From: an uncultured Actinomycetes bacterium
GTDB taxonomy: Bacteria > Actinomycetota > Actinomycetes > Streptosporangiales > Streptosporangiaceae
Direction of reading: 5' to 3'
Assembly (NCBI GenBank): GCA_963770375.1
Contig: CAVYPM010000008.1
Coordinates: 93,999 to 157,998, forward strand
DNA length: 64,000 bases
The notes beneath the pieces are model-generated. The model saw only the letters and a list, made by a program, of their open reading frames with translations, did no database searches and had not been told where the DNA came from. Positions 2,535-59,158 of the stretch are shown here, piece after piece (within the stretch, counting starts at the first letter, position 1; each line of letters begins with the position of its first letter). Both the position numbers and the translations under genes were made by a program.

Positions 2535-5093
<2,559 letters not shown>

Positions 5094-5330
5094 CTCGTCG
5101 CTCCCTCACAGAGCGGTCGGGTAGGCGTACTGCCCTGTCCTTCCGCATGCTAGCCCGCGTGCCGGGCGACGTTCGCACAAGCAATATGTCGCTCATGTAA
5201 AACGTTCCCCCACCACGTGGCGTTCATCCCATCCAACTGGTGGAACCCGAGGTGGTGTTCCCAGATACGCCGGGAGCGAACGCGCTGCCGGGAGATGTAC
5301 AGACCGGCCTCCGGCGGAGCCGGCCAGCTC

Positions 5331-5425
5331 GGAGGGCCGCGGCGCTGTTTCCGACGAGCGATGAGGCGCGACGAAGGAGCGCCGAGGGAGCGAGGAGGGA
5401 AGGCAGCGCTCAAGCGGCCCACGAG
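5331..5425 (+). repeat. Copy A of a ~95-nt purine-rich, SD-like-rich conserved element in the clpC1-lsr2 intergenic region
   Basis: ggagggccgcggcgctgtttccgacgagcgatgaggcgcgacgaaggagcgccgagggagcgaggagggaaggcagcgctcaagcggccc is ~93% identical to 55634-55730 in the same orientation. Internal complementarity (GGCGCU...AGCGCC) is present. Confidence 0.6.
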
Positions 5426-5574
5426 CCAGCCAGCACTGCCCGAGCGAGCCAGACAGCACAGCGCACCGCGCGGGTTCGCGCGGTGCGCTGCTGGCCTTGC
5501 TGCGCTGCGAGCGGTCACCTACCCGGCCGGGGGATGCGGGTCAGGCCCGCGCGTCCCCTGGGCACGGGTGGTGC

Positions 5575-5907
5575 TCAGTGGGCGGCCTCGTACTCCTGGA
5601 TGATCGTGGCCGGGATACGCCCGCGCTCGCTTACCTTGTGACCCTTGTCGCGGGCCCAGGCGCGGATTTCCGCGCTGCGCTCGCGGCCCGGGCCGCTGCG
5701 GGCCCGGCGGCGGCGGGCGACGGAACCCGCACGGCGGGCATTGCCGGTGTACGCGCCGAACTTGTCGTGCAGTTCCTTGGCGTGTGCCGTGCACACGTCG
5801 ATCTCGTAGGCAGTTCCCTCAAAGGAGAACGAAACCGTCTCCTTACTCAGGACCTCGTCATCGTGCGGAAGGTCGCAGACGACAGTCGTTGTAATCTTCC
5901 GTGCCAT
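5575..5907 (-). CDS. lsr2: Nucleoid-associated protein Lsr2
   Basis: 110 aa. MARKITTTVVCDLPHDDEV...EIRAWARDKGHKVSERGRIPATIIQEYEAAH matches the Lsr2 N-terminal dimerisation and C-terminal AT-hook-like DNA-binding domains. AT-rich upstream region. Confidence 0.9.
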   Translation of the reverse strand: MARKITTTVVCDLPHDDEVLSKETVSFSFEGTAYEIDVCTAHAKELHDKFGAYTGNARRAGSVARRRRARSGPGRERSAEIRAWARDKGHKVSERGRIPATIIQEYEAAH

Positions 5908-10124: not shown

Positions 10125-10310
10125 GGCTGCCCCCTGAGACAGGCCGGTGACACCCGCCGAGTTCCTGGTGTGTGCTCGCATGCACCGGGGAGCCGGGGAC
10201 CCACCGTTCCCCGGGGTGAATCGGCTGGCTCCGGCCCTGCCCCAGGGCCGTACCAGCCGTAGGGCTCCTCCAGCCCGAACCCGTCAGCTAACCCGGTAGG
10301 CGGCCGAGGA
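10125..10310 (+). promoter_or_regulatory. ydaO/kimA-class c-di-AMP riboswitch in the 5' leader of the NlpC/P60 gene
   Basis: CCGGGGUGAAUCGG (compare GGGGUUAAUC) and CCCGUCAGCUAACCCGGUAGGCGG (compare CCCGACAGCUAACUCCGGAGGC) match the crystallised T. tengcongensis c-di-AMP riboswitch. The element ends at the RBS GGAGGAGAGGAGCAGC just before the start codon. 5' boundary is approximate. Confidence 0.7.
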
Positions 10311-10322
10311 GAGGAGCAGCAC

Positions 10323-11384
10323 GTGGAGCGCTTGCCCATCGGCAGGCAGTTCGCAGGCAGTTCACGGGGGAAACGCACCCGTGCCAGGTTTCACCGGGCA
10401 TGGGCCCGGACCGGTTTGGTCACCGGGACGGTTCTGCTGGCCGGGTTCGCCCTGCCAGCCAGCCTGAGCGTCGGCGCCCAGGCGACCACGGCGTCACCAG
10501 TGCCGCCCAGCATGAAGGCGCTCCTGGCCAAGGCCAACAAGGTGGCCCGCCAGGTCGAGGTGCTCAGCAACCAGTACGACGCGCTGAAGATTCAGCTTCA
10601 GGAAGCCAGGACCGAGGCCACGCTGGCCCGCAAGGCCGCCGAGCGCGACGCCAAGCAGCTGACCCAAGGCCAGCTCGCGGTCGGCCAGATCGCCGCCCAG
10701 GGCTACATGACCGGCAGCTTCGACCCGACCCTGCAGCTGCTGCAGAGCAGCGACCCGCAGGGGTTCGTCAACCGGGTCTCGATCATGCTGCAGCTGCAGC
10801 ACGAGAACGGCGACCGGGTCACCGCCGCGACCACCGCGAAGAACGCCGCCGAGCGCGCCGTGCTGACCGCGCAGCAGGAGGAGGCCAAGGCCACCCGGCT
10901 GTCCGCGGCGATGAAGAAGAAGGTCGCCGAGATCCAGGCCAAAGAGAACGTGCTGAACAGCGCGGCCTACAAGAAGGCCGCGGAGATCTTCCAGCAGACC
11001 GGCTCGTACCCCAACGTGCCGACCCCGGAAGGCAACTCGATCGGGGTCCAGGCGCTGCGCTGGGCGCTCAGCCGCCGCGGTGACGCCTACGTATGGGGCG
11101 CCGCCGGCCCGACCACGTTCGACTGCTCGGGCCTGGTCATGTGGGCCTACGCGCACGTGGGGATCAGCCTGGCGCACCTGACCTTCGACCAGTGGAACGA
11201 GGGCGAGCACGTCCCCAGCGCCCAGGCCCAGCCCGGCGACCTGATCTTCCTCTACGGTCTCGAGCACGTCGGCTTGTACATCGGCAACGGGCTGTTCATC
11301 GATGCGCCGTTCACCGGCACGGTCGTGCGGATCGACCCGGTCCCCTGGGGCTCGGTCGACGGCGTGGTCCGCATCATCGGCTGA
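10323..11384 (+). CDS. Secreted NlpC/P60 peptidoglycan endopeptidase with N-terminal coiled coil (RipA-like)
   Basis: Signal peptide, long coiled-coil segment, and a C-terminal NlpC/P60 core with catalytic Cys (FDCSGLVMWAY) and His (HVGLYIGNG). Confidence 0.8.
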   Translation: MERLPIGRQFAGSSRGKRTRARFHRAWARTGLVTGTVLLAGFALPASLSVGAQATTASPVPPSMKALLAKANKVARQVEVLSNQYDALKIQLQEARTEATLARKAAERDAKQLTQGQLAVGQIAAQGYMTGSFDPTLQLLQSSDPQGFVNRVSIMLQLQHENGDRVTAATTAKNAAERAVLTAQQEEAKATRLSAAMKKKVAEIQAKENVLNSAAYKKAAEIFQQTGSYPNVPTPEGNSIGVQALRWALSRRGDAYVWGAAGPTTFDCSGLVMWAYAHVGISLAHLTFDQWNEGEHVPSAQAQPGDLIFLYGLEHVGLYIGNGLFIDAPFTGTVVRIDPVPWGSVDGVVRIIG

Positions 11385-11410
11385 CCCGCCGCACCCGAAC
11401 GCGCAGTTAC

Positions 11411-11449
11411 GAAACGGCCGCCCCGGGCACCATGCCCGGGGCGGCCGTT
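11411..11449. terminator. Perfect 18-bp hairpin between convergent NlpC/P60 and lysS genes
   Basis: aaacggccgccccgggca cca tgcccggggcggccgttt. Confidence 0.6.
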
Positions 11450-11464
11450 TGCGTGAACTCCCGC

Positions 11465-12991
11465 CTACTCCGGCCGCACCAGCGGGAACAGGATCGTCTC
11501 CCGGATGCTCGACCCGGTCAGCATGATCAGCAGCCGGTCCAGCCCCATGCCCATGCCCCCGGTCGGCGGCATGCCGTACTCCAGCGCCCGCAGGAAGTCC
11601 TCGTCCAGCTGCATCGCCTCGGCGTCGCCGCCCGCGGCGAGCAGCGACTGGGCGGTCAGCCGGGCCCGCTCCTCGTCCGGGTCGACCAGTTCGGTGTACG
11701 CGGTCGCGATCTCGGTCCCGAACGCCACCAGGTCCCACTTCTCGGCCAGCCGCGGGTCGTCCCGGTGCGCCCGGGTCAGCGGCGCCACCTCGACCGGGAA
11801 GTCGCAGTAGAACGTCGGCTCCACGGTCTTGCTCTCCACCAGGTGCTCGTACATCTCCAGCAGCACCTGGCCGCGGTTCCACTTCGGGTCCAGGCCGATC
11901 TCCGCGCGGGCGGCCAGCTTGCGCAGCTCGTCCTCGGTGGTGTCCGGGGTGACCTCCTCGCCGAGCGCGGCGGACACCGAGCCGTGCACGGTACGGAACG
12001 GCCACTCACCGCCGATGTCGTACTCGCCGCCGTCGGCCCGGCGGATGACCGTGCCGCCGAAACCGGCCACCGCGGCCGCCTGGATCAGCTCCCTGGTCAG
12101 CGTCGCCATCGTGGTGTAGTCGCCGTACGCCTGGTACAGCTCGAGCATGGTGAACTCGGGGTTGTGCGTGGCGTCGGCGCCCTCGTTGCGGAAGATCCGG
12201 CCGAGCTCGTAGACCTTCTCGATGCCGCCCACGACCAGCCGCTTGAGGTAGAGCTCCAGCGCGATCCGCAGGTACATGGTCAGGTCGCCGTAGGCGTTGA
12301 TGCGGGTGACGAACGGGCGCGCGTTGGCCCCGCCGTGCAGAACCTGCAGCACCGGGGTCTCGACCTCGAGGAACCCGCGCTCGTGCAGTTCCTCGCGAAT
12401 CGCCCTGGTCACCACGCCGCGCAGCTCGGCCATCTGCCGGGTCTGCGGGTTGACCAGCAGGTCCAGGTAGCGCTGCCGCATCCGGGTGGCCGGGTCGGAC
12501 AGGCCGGCGTGCTTCTCCGGCAGCGGCCGCAGCGCCTTGGCGGTGATCAGGAACGAGTCGGCCAGCACCGACAGCTCGCCCCGCCGGGAGGTGATGACCT
12601 CGCCCTCGACCCCGATGTGGTCGCCCAGGTCGACGTCCCGCTTCCAGGCCTCGAGCGCGTCCGCGCCGACCCGGTCCAGCGAGACCATCACCTGCAGGTC
12701 GCCGCTGCCGTCCCGGATCGTGGCGAAGCACAGCTTGCCGCCGGTGCGGTACAGCATGACCCGGCCGGCCACGGCGACCCGGTCGCCGGTGGCGGTGTCC
12801 GGGGCCAGGTCCTGGTAGCGCTCGCGAAGGTCCGCGATGACCGCGGTGCGCTCGAAGCCGGGCGGGTACGGGTCCTTCCCGGCCGCGCGCAGCGCGGCGG
12901 CCTTGGCCCGCCGCACCCGCATCTGCTCGGCAAGACCGCTGGCCGGGCCGGTTTCCCCGCCCGGAGCCGGCGCTGTTTCATCCGCTGTCAT
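11465..12991 (-). CDS. lysS: Lysyl-tRNA synthetase (class II)
   Basis: OB-fold anticodon-binding domain plus class II core with motifs 1-3 (FLEVETPVLQ, GIEKVYELGRIFRNEG, GGMGMGLDRLLI). ATG 12991 (MTADETAPA) is chosen because the ORF start at 13066 would overlap coaX. Confidence 0.9.
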   Translation of the reverse strand: MTADETAPAPGGETGPASGLAEQMRVRRAKAAALRAAGKDPYPPGFERTAVIADLRERYQDLAPDTATGDRVAVAGRVMLYRTGGKLCFATIRDGSGDLQVMVSLDRVGADALEAWKRDVDLGDHIGVEGEVITSRRGELSVLADSFLITAKALRPLPEKHAGLSDPATRMRQRYLDLLVNPQTRQMAELRGVVTRAIREELHERGFLEVETPVLQVLHGGANARPFVTRINAYGDLTMYLRIALELYLKRLVVGGIEKVYELGRIFRNEGADATHNPEFTMLELYQAYGDYTTMATLTRELIQAAAVAGFGGTVIRRADGGEYDIGGEWPFRTVHGSVSAALGEEVTPDTTEDELRKLAARAEIGLDPKWNRGQVLLEMYEHLVESKTVEPTFYCDFPVEVAPLTRAHRDDPRLAEKWDLVAFGTEIATAYTELVDPDEERARLTAQSLLAAGGDAEAMQLDEDFLRALEYGMPPTGGMGMGLDRLLIMLTGSSIRETILFPLVRPE

Positions 12992-35644: not shown

Positions 35645-38116
<2,472 letters not shown>

Positions 38117-39635: not shown

Positions 39636-39712
39636 CGGGGTGTGGCGCAGCTTGGCAGCGCGCTTCGTTCGGGACGAAGAGGCCGCCGGTTCAAATCCGG
39701 CCACCCCGACCA
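39636..39712 (+). tRNA. tRNA-Pro (anticodon CGG), CCA encoded
   Basis: Acceptor CGGGGTG/CACCCCG, D-arm GGCGCAGCTTGGCAGCGCGC, anticodon stem-loop CTTCG-TTCGGGA-CGAAG, T-arm GCCGGTTCAAATCCGGC, then ACCA. Confidence 0.85.
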
Positions 39713-54647: not shown

Positions 54648-55415
54648 GTGGCCGGGGACCGCGAGCTCGGCCGCCCGGCCGGGCTGCGGATCACCGCCGC
54701 CGGGACGCCCGCGTCGCATTCCAGGTCGGTCTGGCTGGACGGTGGCCCGGCCGGGGCCACGGTCACCGTCCCCGCGGCCCGGGGCCTGGCTACCTGCGCT
54801 ACCTGCTCCAGTGCCCGGGCACCGACGTGCCCGCGGCGGACCTGGCCGCGGCGGCACCGCCGTCCCGGCGCCGGGCGGCCGGCCGGGCGGGCCAGGGAAC
54901 ACGGCCTGGCGGTGGCCAGGTCCAGCCCGGGTGAGCTGGCCGACGCCCAGGCGCTGGCGGCCTACCGGGCGCGGCTGTCCGAGCTGGACGCCGAGCTGGC
55001 CGAGGCCGAGTCCTGGGCCGACGAGGGGCGGCTGACCCGGCTGCGGCTGGAGCGCGGCGCCCTGCTCGACGAGGTCGCCGCGGCGACCGGGCTCGGCGGC
55101 CGGCCCCGCCGGTTCAGCTCGGACGGCGAACGGGCCCGGGTCTCGGTCCGCAAGGCGATCGCCACGGCGCTGCACCGGATCGAGGCGGCTGACCCGGCGC
55201 TGGCCCGGCTGCTGCACGGCACCGTGCGCACCGGCGCGGTCTGCCGTTACGACCCCGATCCTAGGCCGCCCGGTCAGCTGGCTGCTCAGCCCCGCAGCCG
55301 GGGACGGCGGCGAAGCCGGATCCGCAACGGGGTAGGCGATCCCGGCGGGAAGCCAAGGACACGCTGCTGGCCGCCCGGCGCCAGCGGGAACCCGGCCGCG
55401 CGCGACGGCTCGTAG
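54648..55415 (+). CDS. Hypothetical protein, frame ambiguous (possibly disrupted regulator-like gene)
   Basis: Only the segment ELADAQALAAYRARLSELDAELAEAESWADEGRLTRLRLERGALLDEV...ERARVSVRKAIATALHRI looks protein-like; upstream sequence reads better in another frame (GYLRYLLQCPGTDVPAADLAAA). Confidence 0.2.
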   Translation: MAGDRELGRPAGLRITAAGTPASHSRSVWLDGGPAGATVTVPAARGLATCATCSSARAPTCPRRTWPRRHRRPGAGRPAGRAREHGLAVARSSPGELADAQALAAYRARLSELDAELAEAESWADEGRLTRLRLERGALLDEVAAATGLGGRPRRFSSDGERARVSVRKAIATALHRIEAADPALARLLHGTVRTGAVCRYDPDPRPPGQLAAQPRSRGRRRSRIRNGVGDPGGKPRTRCWPPGASGNPAARDGS

Positions 55416-55633
55416 TCGATCCAGGCCCGGGCCGCTGGCCCCCAGATCCCCAGGGTCTGGCGGTGCATTTCCTGTTCCCTGAACATGGCCACCTCCTGGT
55501 GGCAGCGGCCGCACTAGGCCGGGAGCCGGCCCCTGGAACGGACCGCCGTTCCCGATCCAAGCCTGGCACCGCGCAGTCCCGAGGACAATGGCCAGCCAGC
55601 CATTTCGGCCGGCGGAGCCGGCAGTAAGCTCGC

Positions 55634-55730
55634 GGAGGGCCGCGGCGCTGTTTTCCTGACGAGCGATGAGGCGCGACGAAGGAGCGCCGAGGGAGCGAGG
55701 AGGGAAGGCAGCGCCTCTCAAGCGGCCCGC
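55634..55730 (+). repeat. Copy B of the ~95-nt purine-rich element, ~95 nt upstream of a four-gene hypothetical operon
   Basis: ~93% identical to 5331-5425 in the same orientation. Followed by the hairpin ggacgca-N13-tgcgtcc and an AT-rich leader before ATG 55825. Confidence 0.6.
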
Positions 55731-55824
55731 AGCGAGCGGCTAGCACAGAAGCGGTGGCGGGCCGGCGGGACGCACGGAATACTCGCTTGCGTCCGTTATC
55801 GGCCGATCTAGGGATTTCAGGAAA

Positions 55825-56142
55825 ATGGCTCCTGATCTTGAGGTCAACCTCAGCCTCCTGGAGAGCACCGCCGGGTCGCTGAGCATGCTGATTGAGGAGT
55901 TCACGAACGCCTCGGACATCGAGTCGTCCTATGAGGCCGCGGTTGGCGAAAAGAACCTGGTGAGCGCGCTGCATTCGTTCACGAGCAACTGGAAAGCGCA
56001 CCGCGAGGACATGATCAAATCAATGCAGGACGTGTACAAGATGGCCACTCAGAGCCATCAGGCCTACCTGGACACCGACGACAAGCTGGCCCAGGACATC
56101 AGGGCGGACACGTCGGCGGCGGCGCCGGGCGGCCCCCGGTGA
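55825..56142 (+). CDS. Small all-helical hypothetical protein (105 aa), first gene of the operon
   Basis: MAPDLEVNLSLLESTAGSLSMLIEEFTNASDIESSYEAAVGEKNLVSALHSFTSNWKAHREDMIKSMQDVYKMATQSHQAYLDTDDKLAQDIRA. Lower GC; good RBS context. Helical-hairpin size class similar to WXG100-like proteins but without a WxG motif. Confidence 0.5.
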   Translation: MAPDLEVNLSLLESTAGSLSMLIEEFTNASDIESSYEAAVGEKNLVSALHSFTSNWKAHREDMIKSMQDVYKMATQSHQAYLDTDDKLAQDIRADTSAAAPGGPR

Positions 56143-56625
56143 CCCCGCGGCCGCCGGACTTCGAGCCACTGGCCGGGTCCGACCCGGTGCCCGGCGACCC
56201 GGACCGGGTCGCTGCGCGACGCCAAGGCGGCGGGCGGGCTTGACGTGCTGATCAGCGTCGCGGAGAGCCACGGCGTGCCGATCGCGGCCTCCTGCCTGAT
56301 CACCTACCTGGACCAGGACGGGACGAAGGTGCCACTGGACGGCCTGCTCATGGACCTGGCCGCCCGCGGCGGGCAGGTCACCGGGACCGAGATCGCAGGC
56401 GCCCCGGCCATCAGGCGTCAGTACGAGGTCCTTCCGCCGGAAGGCAGCCTCCCCGGCGGCCAAGAGCCGGTCTCGACCAGGGTGACCATGGTCGACTTCT
56501 TCCTGCCGCTGCCGGGCCAGCCGGGATTGCTCGTGCTGTCGTTCTCCACCCCGGTGGAGCCGCTGGCCGAGGCGCTGGTCATGCTGTTCGACGCGATCGC
56601 GGAGTCGCTGCGGTGGACCCGGTGA
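56139..56625 (+). CDS. Hypothetical protein; GTG start overlapping the upstream stop (GTGA), with an apparent +1 frameshift near 56215-56230
   Basis: VTPRPPDFEPLAGSDPVPGDPDRVAA... (frame 56139) joins ...DAKAAGGLDVLISVAESHGVPIAASCLITYLDQDG... (ORF 56245-56625) if one nucleotide is removed from the gcgcgacgcc run. Confidence 0.4.
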
Positions 56626-57227
56626 CCGCGTTCGCGCTGCCCCCCGTGGTGGTGGACTACGACGCCCACTGGGTGGAGGTGGACCTGCGCGGCGACGCCG
56701 GCCAGTGGGCCCAGCGGGCCGCCGCCGAGGTGCTGGCCCGGTCCGGCGAGCCGGCCCGCGGGGCGGACGCCCGGCAGCTGGCCAAGCTGTTCGCGGCCGC
56801 GGGCGCGATCGCCCGGCGGGCCCAGGACGCCACGATCTCGCTGCTGCTCTACCCGGGCCCGGAGTTCGGCGTCCGGGCGATCGCCCGGTTCTGCCCGGTC
56901 GACCTGTCCGGGCAAGACGGCGACGACGCCTGGGCCGGCCTGGAGAGCATCGCCGTGGTGGACCTGCCCGGCCAGGAGCCGCCGGAGATCACCGAGCTGG
57001 ATTCCGCGGCCGGTCCCTGCCGCCGGGTCCGCCAGCTGGTCGCCGACGGCGATCAGCCCGAACGGCCCGTGTCCGAGCACCTGGCCTACCTGTGGCTGTT
57101 CCCCGACTACGGCGCGGGCGTGATCCTGGCCACCGCGTTCAGCGACCTGGTCCAGGCCGGCCGCTGGCGCCCGGTCCTCGACGACCTGGCCACCACCGGG
57201 GTGACCCTCCGCCAGCCCGGCGAGTAA
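56613..57227 (+). CDS. Hypothetical protein (204 aa); overlaps the previous gene by 13 nt
   Basis: No recognisable family. Acidic, not Arg-rich. Overlap suggests translational coupling. Confidence 0.45.
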   Translation: MDPVTAFALPPVVVDYDAHWVEVDLRGDAGQWAQRAAAEVLARSGEPARGADARQLAKLFAAAGAIARRAQDATISLLLYPGPEFGVRAIARFCPVDLSGQDGDDAWAGLESIAVVDLPGQEPPEITELDSAAGPCRRVRQLVADGDQPERPVSEHLAYLWLFPDYGAGVILATAFSDLVQAGRWRPVLDDLATTGVTLRQPGE

Positions 57228-57316
57228 CCGGGCCGACACGGACCGCTGACCCAGCCGTTCTTTTCCGGCTCAAACTGAGAGGCCGCCGGGCCGTCCGGAC
57301 CGGTAGAACAGGGACC

Positions 57317-57985
57317 ATGGCCGACACGAACGCGGGAACCGCAGCGCAGGACGGCACGGGCCAGGAAGGCACACTGCCGACGGTGGCCATCGAGGGCCCG
57401 GCGGCGCGGGCGCTGGCCGAGAGCGCCGCGGTCATCGGCGACCTGCAGTTCGTGATGGAGTGCTGCAAGCGGCTGCTGACCGAGCTGGCCGCGCCCGAGG
57501 AGGAGCGGGACCCGCTGGTCCCGCAGGCGCTGTGGTCGGCCGCGCTGAACGGGTACGCGCGCTGCTTCGGCAAGGGCAGCCGGCCCGGGCTGACCCTGGA
57601 CGACGTGCGCGCGCTGCCGCTGGAGGGCGAGGTGGTCAAGTACCACCAGTGGCTGCTGGCCGAGCGCAGCCGCCAGGCCACGCGGGCCACCAGCCCGTTC
57701 GACGAGGTCAGGATCGGCGCCGTGCTGTCGCCCCGGCACTCGCCGGAGCGGAAGCTGCGCGGCATCGCGATCCTGCCGGTCAGCCACGTGCTGGTCGACG
57801 AGACCGGGGTACGCCAGCTCGGCGGGCTGGCCGCCGAACTGGCCAAGCAGGCCGCGGACCGGGCCCAGAAGCAGCAGGAAACGGTGCTGGCCGAGGCCAC
57901 CCGCCAGGACCTGGCCGCGCTGGACAAGCTGCCGCTGCTGCGCATGCTGACCCCCGCCGACGAGGCCGCCGCCCGCGACGCCTAG
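57317..57985 (+). CDS. Hypothetical protein (~222 aa)
   Basis: MADTNAGTAAQDG...VIGDLQFVMECCKRLLTELAAPEEERDPLVPQALWSAALNGYARCFGKG... No family recognised. The ORF's upstream 200 codons are Arg/Pro/Gly-rich and were rejected. Confidence 0.45.
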   Translation: MADTNAGTAAQDGTGQEGTLPTVAIEGPAARALAESAAVIGDLQFVMECCKRLLTELAAPEEERDPLVPQALWSAALNGYARCFGKGSRPGLTLDDVRALPLEGEVVKYHQWLLAERSRQATRATSPFDEVRIGAVLSPRHSPERKLRGIAILPVSHVLVDETGVRQLGGLAAELAKQAADRAQKQQETVLAEATRQDLAALDKLPLLRMLTPADEAAARDA

Positions 57986-58014
57986 CCGGGCGCCCAGGCC
58001 CTCGGGCCACCCCG

Positions 58015-58266
58015 TTACCGGTGCCGGCGGCTCCAGATGCGGCTGCCCACGACGATCAGCACCGCGATGAGCAGGCCAGCGGCAACGATCCCGGCCCGGA
58101 GGAGCATCACGTCATTGGCCGGCTGCGGGCACGGCAATGCCGGAGCGCCTCCCAGCCGGGAGCACGCCGCGAGCGGAGCGCGGACTGAGGCAGCGAAGAT
58201 AACCGAGCCAGTAACGCACACTGACCCCGCGGCGACCGCCAGCCACTGCCTCATGCTTCCGATCAT
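58015..58266 (-). CDS. Small membrane protein downstream of the ECF sigma gene
   Basis: 83 aa with N-terminal hydrophobic/signal segment and C-terminal TM helix (GIVAAGLLIAVLIVVGSRIW). Confidence 0.35.
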   Translation of the reverse strand: MIGSMRQWLAVAAGSVCVTGSVIFAASVRAPLAACSRLGGAPALPCPQPANDVMLLRAGIVAAGLLIAVLIVVGSRIWSRRHR

Positions 58267-58301
58267 CCGCTATCTCCTGCTGCTTGCTACGCCTCCCGGC
58301 G

Positions 58302-58904
58302 TCAGGTGATGCCGAGAAGGGCGGCGTCGCCGACGGCGGCGCGGACCTTCAGGCGGGCCTGGTGCAGCCTGCTCTTGAAGGCGGCCTCGCTGACCCCGGT
58401 GATCTCGGCGGCTTCCCGGGTGGACAGGCCCTCGATGTCGCGCAGCACGATCGCGGCCCGGTAGCCGGGCGGCAGGCTGGCCAGGGCCCGGGCCAGCGCG
58501 TCGCGCAGTTCCCGCTGCTCGGCCTGCGCGCCGGGCTCGTCACGCGCCGGGGCGGGGACGTCCAGCGCGGAGTTGCCGGGCTCACCGATCGGCACCGACG
58601 GCGGCCGCCGCGCGGCCCGCTGCCGTGACCTGGTGGCCTCGTTCATCGCGATCCGGTACAGCCAGGTGAAGAAGCTGGACCCGCCGCGGAACCCGCCGAT
58701 GCCCCGCCAGGCCCGCAGCAGCACCTCCTGGGCCAGGTCACCGGCCTCGTCACGGCTGCCGGTCATCCGCAGCAGCACCGCGAACAGCCGGTCCGCGTGG
58801 GCCATGACCAGGTCCGCGAACGCGTCCATGTCCCCGGCCTGGGCTCGCGCGATCAGCTCCGCCTCGGTCTCCGGCCCGGCTGGCGTCACCGGCTCTGGCG
58901 TCAC
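58302..58904 (-). CDS. ECF (group IV) RNA polymerase sigma factor
   Basis: Region 2 (FADLVMAHADRLFAVLLRMTGSRDEAGDLAQEVLLRAWRGIGGF...FFTWLYRIAMN) and region 4 (YRAAIVLRDIEGLSTREAAEITGVSEAAFKSRLHQAR). GTG start overlaps the stop of the upstream anti-sigma gene (GTGA). Confidence 0.8.
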   Translation of the reverse strand: MTPEPVTPAGPETEAELIARAQAGDMDAFADLVMAHADRLFAVLLRMTGSRDEAGDLAQEVLLRAWRGIGGFRGGSSFFTWLYRIAMNEATRSRQRAARRPPSVPIGEPGNSALDVPAPARDEPGAQAEQRELRDALARALASLPPGYRAAIVLRDIEGLSTREAAEITGVSEAAFKSRLHQARLKVRAAVGDAALLGIT

Positions 58905-59158
58905 CGGCTCTGGCGATCGGCCGCGGCGGCCCGGGCCCGGTCCAGGATCCCGCCCGGGGCCCTGACCTCCCGGCTGCCGTCCGCGGCCAGCACCCGGCGC
59001 AGCGCCCGCATGGCCCGCAGGCCGCGTTCGCAGTCCACGCAGCCCAGGGCGTGCCGGTCCAGCCGCCGCCGGGCCCGCGCGGGCAGGTCGCCCTCGGCGT
59101 AGTGGGACAGGTGCTGCTGTGACCACTGGTGGTCAGCGGAATGGCCTGGCACCCTCAT
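58901..59158 (-). CDS. ZAS-type (zinc-binding) anti-sigma factor
   Basis: 85 aa with an HxxxCxxC motif (DRHALGCVDCE) preceded by a His-rich segment; GGAGG RBS; translationally coupled to the sigma gene. Confidence 0.65.
   Translation of the reverse strand: MRVPGHSADHQWSQQHLSHYAEGDLPARARRRLDRHALGCVDCERGLRAMRALRRVLAADGSREVRAPGGILDRARAAAADRQSR

Follow-up and report, generated by a model that had tools for sequence, protein, structure and literature searches.

Remnant of a probable type VII effector-export cassette behind a dispersed repeat in a Streptosporangiaceae-type genome

Background

What does a cluster of small genes without recognised families do when it stands directly behind a conserved palindromic element? 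The question is raised by positions 55,634 to 57,985 of a 64,000-nt stretch of DNA (hereafter the window) from an uncultured Actinomycetes bacterium of the Streptosporangiaceae (assembly GCA_963770375.1, contig CAVYPM010000008.1, positions 93,999 to 157,998 of the forward strand). An initial annotation, made from the sequence alone, described this region as the second copy of a leader element heading a four-gene operon of unknown function. In this paper, we have compared the region with related loci and contigs (labelled L plus a number), and conclude that it is probably the decayed remnant of an effector-export cassette for type VII secretion (T7SS, or ESX), with an unrelated dispersed repeat upstream. 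The genes P1, P3 and P4, the two gene fragments between P1 and P3, and the repeat are listed in Table 1.

Table 1. Features of the locus and the second copy of the repeat, in window coordinates
Feature	Position	Strand	Description
P1	55825..56142	+	105 aa, intact; PE/EspC-like putative small partner, YxxxD at Y81-D85
Stump of the 466-aa gene	56139..56243	+	5' end of a WXG100/PPE-like putative transmembrane effector gene; GTG 56139, 34 codons, stop 56241-56243
Deletion junction	56210..56212		1,543 bp; 3-nt CGC microhomology; blastn
3' remnant of the 211-aa gene	56210..56625	+	DUF1795-like putative accessory gene, about residues 74-211; longest open reading frame from GTG 56245, 126 aa
P3	56613..57227	+	204 aa, soluble, intact; predicted DUF1795/DcrB/Mog1-PsbP fold
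P4	57317..57985	+	222 aa, ATG 57317; 89-nt gap after P3
Hairpin GGACGCA-N13-TGCGTCC	55768..55794	+	In the true P1 leader; GC is lower from here to ATG 55825
Repeat copy B	55606..55748 (about)		Dispersed palindromic repeat of ~140 nt, outside the cassette
Repeat copy A	5308..5438 (about)		Flanked by lsr2 and a clpC-type ATPase gene (both minus strand)

Results

The second reading frame is a deletion scar

The open reading frames (ORFs), their overlaps and the hairpin upstream of P1 lie where the initial annotation had placed them, except for the second ORF; P4 is to be read from the ATG at 57317, giving 222 aa. The P1 stop codon and the following GTG start overlap as GTGA at 56139-56142, and P3, starting at 56613, overlaps the end of the preceding ORF (56625) by 13 nt. 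The GC content at third codon positions (GC3) is 0.85-0.88 in P1, 0.9-1.0 in the other ORFs and 0.95-1.0 in P4. Since these values of 0.85 to 1.0 are found in exactly the called frames, the frames are genuinely coding, and with the two overlaps the description of real, translationally coupled genes stands. A lack of homologues or poor coding potential, which had been named as grounds for abandoning the operon, was looked for; homologues were found and the GC3 signal is strong. The surrounding window is high-GC actinobacterial DNA, and the locally lower GC content reported for the operon holds only over P1 (0.58-0.61), the values elsewhere being about 0.72-0.78. Because GC3 stays high in P1, its dip reflects amino-acid composition rather than foreign DNA, and a horizontal origin of the low-GC patch was ruled out on this ground.

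The second ORF, given initially as about 162 aa, has no intact frame: the GTG at 56139 opens 34 codons, and a different frame runs from the GTG at 56245 to 56625 (126 aa). Near-identical metagenome contigs, retrieved by exact-sequence look-up of P1 and P3, carry an intact locus of five genes in the order P1, 466 aa, 211 aa, 204 aa (P3) and 222 aa (P4) (L002, L003, L005, L006, L007 and L010). When compared by blastn, the window joins the equivalents of L002 positions 10388 and 11932, i.e. 1,543 bp are lost, and the supposed frameshift is the junction of this deletion. The deletion brings codon 25 of the 466-aa gene up against approximately codon 74 of the 211-aa gene, in a different frame. The translation of the stump consists of the first 25 codons (VTPRPPDFEPLAGSDPVPGDPDRVA), followed by nine out-of-frame codons and a stop; its N-terminus is identical to that of the full-length genes in L002, L003 and L007 (phmmer E = 1.4e-11). 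The 3' remnant matches the 211-aa protein with E = 2.4e-87, the first third of the fold being gone. What looked like a four-gene operon of unknown family is really the deletion remnant of a five-gene locus, the conserved core of which comprises four genes (see below).

One might suspect an assembly or sequencing artefact, the genome truly having the intact five-gene locus, as several frameshift-like disruptions are seen in these genes in related long-read metagenome contigs (truncated or split genes in L003, L004, L007 and L148, some of which may be long-read assembly errors), and as L001 shows a different rearrangement at the same left breakpoint. However, the exact 46-mer across the junction recurs in L064, and L063 has the same layout as the window with one single-nucleotide polymorphism at 9x coverage; both are independent short-read assemblies from other samples. 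Because the same arrangement occurs in these two assemblies, the deletion is a real allele, and we regard an artefact as highly improbable.

The rearrangement in L001 (positions 10386-10550; ERZ25039556 contig_5276) is an observation in its own right. Effector codon 25 is followed there by a copy-like stretch of the P1 leader and by a mini-ORF that encodes only the transmembrane (TM) segment (MAFAAGFVLIGLAAETLATIAETAL...), and the 211-aa gene lies further downstream. Such a structure suggests a recombination hotspot or an exchange with a paralogous module.

The lost protein and its putative small partner

The protein lost from the window belongs to a family whose members are already annotated as secretion substrates. 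The 100 homologues of the protein go by the names 'WXG100 family type VII secretion target' or YukE, and precomputed PF06013 (WXG100) or PF21725 (T7SS_signal) matches are on record for many of them. The initial statement that none of the genes matches a recognised family therefore fails for this central gene. The 466-aa protein of L002 itself scores 23.3 bits against WXG100 (gathering threshold 27.3 bits) and 14.6 bits against T7SS_signal (threshold 27 bits), and has a further sub-threshold match to WXG100_2. The tryptophan W56 of the WxG motif is conserved in at least 90% of the family. In an AlphaFold (AF2) model with a predicted local distance difference test score (pLDDT) of 80.6, three long N-terminal helices have pLDDT >90; helices 21-55 and 59-119 place the WxG in a helix-turn-helix in the full-length orthologues. 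Two TM helices at 196-226 and 240-267, indicated by hydropathy as well, are followed by a helical C-terminal domain. PDB sequence searches with the 466-aa protein and with its 90-sequence profile returned only weak EsxA matches (E 0.07-0.5) over residues ~20-103. The window's copy of the gene breaks off after codon 25, ahead of the motif, and neither the WxG nor its helix-turn-helix is present there.

P1 had been placed by the initial annotation in the size class of secretion-associated helical-hairpin proteins, and this placement is borne out. P1 scores 23.9 bits (E = 6.4e-5) against the Pfam family DUF6507 (PF20117); since this is below the 25-bit gathering threshold, P1 is a related outlier of the family and no formal member. 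Its orthologue in L060 matches DUF6507 at 20.1 bits, and that in L062 instead matches T7SS_ESX_EspC, weakly, at 16.8 bits. A (Y/F)xxxD motif near the C-terminus is conserved among the 66 aligned members of the P1 family (Y in 46 and F in 14; D in 65 and E in 1), and reads Y81-L-D-T-D85 in P1, which thus has both the size of about 100 aa and the C-terminal YxxxD/E of the small member of a T7SS substrate pair. In ESX systems, the T7SS export motif stands at this position. A PDB sequence search with the P1 family profile gave no useful match, Pfam assigned neither P1 nor the 466-aa protein to PE or PPE, and the PADLOC defence models matched none of P1, P3, P4, the 211-aa and the 466-aa proteins. 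The linkage of related loci to EccC/EssC genes, described next, likewise bears on the placement of P1.

A conserved four-gene module beside EccC

A metagenome scan added 80 loci, and iterative profile searches were made on their six-frame ORFs; the counts given here refer to 83 related loci. Where enough flanking sequence was available, a P1-like gene precedes the gene for the WxG- and TM-bearing protein (WXG-TM gene) in 53 of 59 loci; downstream of it, 44 of 53 loci have a 211-like gene and 28 of 39 have a P3-like one. In L060 and L061 the same four genes stand in the same order. The conserved core of the module is thus formed by the P1, WXG-TM, 211-like and P3-like genes. P4 is outside this core, because among the fetched loci it is present only in near-identical strains and is missing from the more distant loci with the module. 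An EccC-like ORF lies beside the module in 25 of the 83 loci, often together with a WXG100 gene. For instance, the modules of L061 and L062 are next to a 1,183- or 1,452-aa FtsK/SpoIIIE ATPase gene and a WXG100 gene, and that of L147 adjoins a gene for an EssC-like ATPase of the FHA-FtsK/SpoIIIE type.

Five long relatives (about 1,450-1,560 aa) are Rhs toxins with DUF6531, RHS repeats and an RHS core. They score above threshold for T7SS_signal (36-48 bits), have the same DSWWD and TM segment as the 466-aa family, and that of L109 ends in a colicin-E3-type 'Cytotoxic' tip. A P1-like gene still precedes their genes, 211-like and P3-like genes still follow, and an extra variable gene occupies the usual immunity position, between toxin and 211-like gene. 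The variable tips and the extra variable gene are traits of polymorphic toxin-immunity systems; the 466-aa family has a conserved C-terminus and no intervening gene.

Several of these loci deserve separate mention. In L116 (about 4523-5700) the product of the variable gene that separates the Rhs toxin from the 211-like gene has 188 aa; by eye it resembles KptA/Tpt1-type RNA 2'-phosphotransferases, and it may be an unusual immunity protein. Some contigs (L080, 4353-10709; L127/L109, Ga0136634_10000126) hold a pair of complete modules close to a single EccC gene, arranged divergently or in tandem, and one contig holds both an Rhs-type and a short-type effector module; the cassette has therefore been duplicated and diversified within genomes. 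In L062 (Pseudonocardiaceae; 11184-12265), the accessory paralogues are separated by two tandem 157-aa predicted membrane proteins with weak TgpA_N and 2TM matches, candidates for membrane immunity proteins that the lineage of the window lacks.

Chaperones or immunity proteins

The 211-like and P3-like families are distant paralogues of each other (hhalign 79%, E = 1.7e-5), and each of them also connects, with 90-95% probability, to additional paralogues in L062. All P3 homologues are named 'hypothetical'. The P3 model has the DUF1795/DcrB fold, as found in the Eag chaperones of type VI secretion (T6SS), and the best fold matches are Eag chaperones and DcrB. Eag (DUF1795) chaperones hold the TM helices of T6SS effectors, including TM-bearing Rhs effectors (PMC8636562). 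By analogy, the 211-like and P3-like proteins may be chaperones for the TM segment of the effector.

The same genes could also be read as the immunity part of a toxin-immunity module, in which case P3 would be an orphan immunity protein left after the loss of the toxin. They lie directly downstream of the effector gene and overlap it, the downstream genes have been kept after the toxin was lost, as is typical of orphan immunity islands, and the DcrB/Mog1 fold is known in the T6SS immunity proteins TplEi and Tli4. However, immunity proteins are not among the best fold matches, both proteins are soluble while the conserved cargo is membrane-embedded, and the same two families stand behind unrelated C-termini: the helical domain, Rhs with the 'Cytotoxic' tip in L109, and other Rhs tips. 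The DSWWD and TM segment is shared by the 466-aa family and every Rhs variant, and the 211-like and P3-like genes accompany all of them. Because Rhs toxins with the same N-terminus keep these genes and have their own additional variable gene where an immunity gene would be expected, the accessory pair, as judged from gene content, tracks the N-terminal/TM region of the effector and not the toxin domain, which argues for a role in export or as chaperones over one in immunity. We therefore consider the immunity explanation rather improbable.

Proposed function of the cassette and nature of its cargo

The reading of the region as a decayed T7SS effector-export cassette, which we regard as probable, can be put as follows. 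P1, a putatively helical protein of about 100 aa with a C-terminal (Y/F)xxxD, would pair with the PPE-like WxG N-terminal domain of the 466-aa protein, and P1 and the effector N-terminus would together form a bipartite signal recognised by the EccC/EssC ATPase. The 466-aa protein has two TM helices and a helical C-terminal domain, in place of which distant relatives have an Rhs toxin. The two soluble DUF1795/DcrB-fold paralogues would be chaperones in the cytoplasm, covering the hydrophobic TM segment until the effector is exported, much as Eag proteins do for T6SS effectors. In the window, the deletion removed the effector together with the initial third of the 211-aa gene; P1, P3 and the lineage-specific P4 are intact, and the putative cassette is without cargo.

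Several results weigh against this reading. The scores of P1 for DUF6507, and of the 466-aa protein for WXG100 and T7SS_signal, are below the respective cut-offs. At the sequence level, P3, the 211-aa protein and their orthologues gave no match to Pfam DUF1795 at E <= 1-5. The 64-kb window contains no EccC/EssC or Esx gene. Furthermore, the homologues of the 466-aa family share 45-50% identity over their full length, so that the C-terminal domain is conserved, which is atypical of a polymorphic toxin, and our searches recognised no toxin domain or other function in it.

An alternative concerns only the function of the cargo and is compatible with an export cassette: the WXG-TM family could be a conserved, membrane-anchored T7SS substrate or accessory with a physiological role (in the envelope, development or DNA transfer) instead of an antibacterial toxin, and its loss in the window could be neutral decay. 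The identity extends over 100% coverage across about 90 homologues, the searches recognised no toxin domain, no variable immunity-like gene stands between the effector and 211-like genes, and the module is often immediately beside EccC and an Esx gene, all of which would suit such a role. Yet the same export N-terminus and accessory set serve bona fide Rhs toxins, and the presence or absence of the gene at strain level, with several independent disruptions in one population, resembles the turnover of competition genes, with the caveat that some of the frameshifts may be long-read assembly errors. On balance, a purely physiological cargo seems somewhat unlikely, and any toxicity of the 466-aa effector itself is put forward here as a possibility.

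The upstream element is a dispersed repeat

The initial annotation regarded the element upstream of P1 as a conserved leader. The 62-nt cores of copy B (55653-55714) and copy A (5348-5409) are 97% identical, and on the plus strand the element folds into a long imperfect hairpin (-85.5 kcal/mol and z = -5.1 for copy B; z = -4.6 for copy A). At copy A, both flanking genes, lsr2 (5575-5907) and the clpC-type gene (2535-5093), are on the minus strand; this copy therefore heads no operon, and the notion of an operon leader finds no co-directional downstream gene there.

A census was made with a 24-mer from the repeat core, matched exactly against 185,579 species-representative genomes. It returned 50 exact matches in 48 stretches, all in one metagenome-assembled genome (MAG), Streptosporangiaceae bacterium SMAG_U1971, one stretch of which (L026) is the site orthologous to copy A. 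The copies in this MAG are on both strands, and many are at contig ends; partial or tandem copies occur occasionally. An alignment of 43 complete copies defines a unit of ~140-150 nt with a near-invariant core and unrelated flanks. When genes were called crudely from GC3, 44 of 52 copies fell between genes; they stand in all gene contexts and orientations, most commonly directly behind a co-directional gene or in the gap of a convergent pair. Sister strains differ at the site of copy B: the core is missing from L007, the whole element from L063 and an internal part of it from L010, with P1 and the proximal leader the same in each of them. The hairpin and the P1 leader are kept in all close strains, including those without the repeat.

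Rfam has no family for the repeat, either at the gathering threshold over the whole window or in an E-value scan of 55400-55900, where the sole match was DUF3800-X (14.6 bits, E = 5.6). Within 55200-58400, a sigma-70 scan found no promoter-like site, and the only terminator-like site on the plus strand sits inside the repeat. The 82-nt leader with the hairpin is no more stable in folding than shuffled sequence (z = -0.07).

A conserved cis-regulatory leader, acting as RNA or operator on a novel four-gene operon, would be in keeping with the near-identity of the two cores, with the stable plus-strand fold, and with the location of copy B only 76 nt upstream of P1. It would also be expected to keep a fixed position and orientation and to be conserved with its genes; instead, the element occurs in at least 50 copies in the related MAG, on both strands and mostly intergenic, copy A has nothing to control downstream, strains with an unaltered operon and proximal leader lack the element, or part of its interior, at the same site, and Rfam knows no such RNA. 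We consider a leader function to have very little chance of being correct. The element is multi-copy, short, palindromic, intergenic and insertion-polymorphic, in the manner of repetitive extragenic palindromic (REP) sequences and miniature inverted-repeat transposable elements (MITEs). Because its copies stand in many contexts, copy A heads nothing and sister strains lack it, it is a REP/MITE-like dispersed element, the place of which before P1 is incidental.

The repeat resembles REP elements and bacterial interspersed mosaic elements (REP/BIME), Correia elements, repeats of the enterobacterial repetitive intergenic consensus (ERIC) type and MITEs in its length of about 140 nt, its conserved core and its long imperfect hairpin. 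Like them, it is multi-copy, intergenic, on both strands and often at gene 3' ends, its presence is polymorphic among strains, and it breaks short-read assemblies, its copies being found at contig ends. It differs from them in that no target-site duplication, no terminal inverted repeat with a cognate transposase and no REP-associated transposase was identified for it, and in that its exact 24-mer matches are found in just one species-level genome of the collection.

Discussion

The module can be compared with three known systems. The first comprises the mycobacterial PE/PPE-EspG and EsxA/EsxB proteins, with which it shares an upstream protein of ~100 aa with YxxxD/E, coupled to a WxG partner with an N-terminal helical domain of ~180 aa, as well as dedicated soluble accessory proteins encoded alongside and the linkage of the module to an FtsK/SpoIIIE ATPase. 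The module differs in that its proteins are outside Pfam PE/PPE by sequence, its host is Streptosporangiaceae-like instead of Mycobacterium, and its WxG partner extends through two TM helices to either a helical domain or an Rhs toxin.

The second comparison is with the LXG toxins of the T7SSb of Bacillota and their Lap targeting factors and dedicated chaperones; an example is TelE, for which a preprint describes a seven-protein export complex (bioRxiv 10.64898/2026.03.12.711312). The likeness lies in an elongated helical N-terminal export domain fused to variable, including membrane-active, cargo, in small helical partners encoded upstream, and in co-encoded proteins that stabilise the effector before export. 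The module, by contrast, gives no LXG, DUF3130 or DUF3958 matches, has one small partner rather than two, is actinobacterial, and has an accessory pair of a different fold.

The third is the set of T6SS prePAAR/TMD effectors (Tse6, RhsA and the Salmonella Rhs) with their Eag chaperones EagT6, EagR and SciW. Here too the effectors have N-proximal TM helices and many have Rhs cages, and the accessory genes track the TM-bearing N-terminus and not the toxin tip. The module differs in having a T7SS signal domain where the T6SS has PAAR/VgrG, in lacking a DUF1795 sequence match, and in having two diverged paralogues as opposed to one homodimeric chaperone; binding of the TM segment by the module pair is putative.

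It is a more tentative proposal, to which we would give somewhat less than an even chance, that TM-bearing T7SS effectors with a PPE-like signal, Rhs toxins among them, depend on the DUF1795-fold pair as a type VII counterpart of Eag chaperones, and that P1 is a PE-like targeting partner outside the mycobacteria. If this is true, one fold would solve the same problem in two unrelated secretion systems, namely keeping a membrane-inserting effector soluble before export. If the pair are chaperones of TM segments, the Eag principle would extend from T6SS to T7SS, and there would be a handle for finding membrane-targeting T7SS effectors in Actinomycetota. Full-text searches of the available papers returned nothing on DUF6507 and no paper tying Eag chaperones to T7SS substrates, and the four-gene module, especially the DUF1795-fold pair, appears to be undescribed in the searchable literature.

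As regards the window, the outcome is chiefly a correction: the supposed regulated orphan operon becomes what is probably a pseudogenised secretion cassette, and its leader a genome-wide repeat. At the level of families, it points to a conserved four-gene export module in soil actinobacteria, in which a putative PE-like partner is accompanied by a PPE-like TM effector (or an Rhs toxin) and by two accessory proteins of predicted DUF1795 fold; three of the four components are annotated just as hypothetical. In addition, the locus has been disrupted independently several times in a single natural population, which provides a small case study of effector-gene turnover.

P4 and other features of the window

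P4 had no match in Pfam, NCBIfam, PADLOC or the PDB, and tblastn against plasmids found none; its 90%-identity cluster has 162 members, all named 'hypothetical'. It is a real gene that is lineage-restricted among the fetched loci. Immediately downstream, on the minus strand, is a gene for an extracytoplasmic function (ECF) sigma factor with a long Pro/Gly/Arg-rich N-terminal extension (58302-59126). The adjoining 83-aa ORF (58015-58266, minus strand) contains a hydrophobic segment and matches no family, and a zf-HC2 anti-sigma factor is annotated nearby in related contigs. On the other side of the locus, a 66-68-aa ORF divergent from P1 (55286-55492, minus strand) has a strong AGGAGG Shine-Dalgarno sequence and a GC3 of about 0.85; it is a called gene in all near-identical contigs, has no family match, and is found in close strains only.

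Elsewhere in the window, the plus strand carries a c-di-AMP riboswitch of the ydaO/yuaA type at 10145-10318 (70.5 bits against a gathering score of 38) and a tRNA gene at 39636-39709 (Rfam RF00005, 64.1 bits). GGC/GGT-rich repeats with a period of 9-15 nt at 37967-38101 would, if coding, specify a glycine-rich low-complexity stretch.

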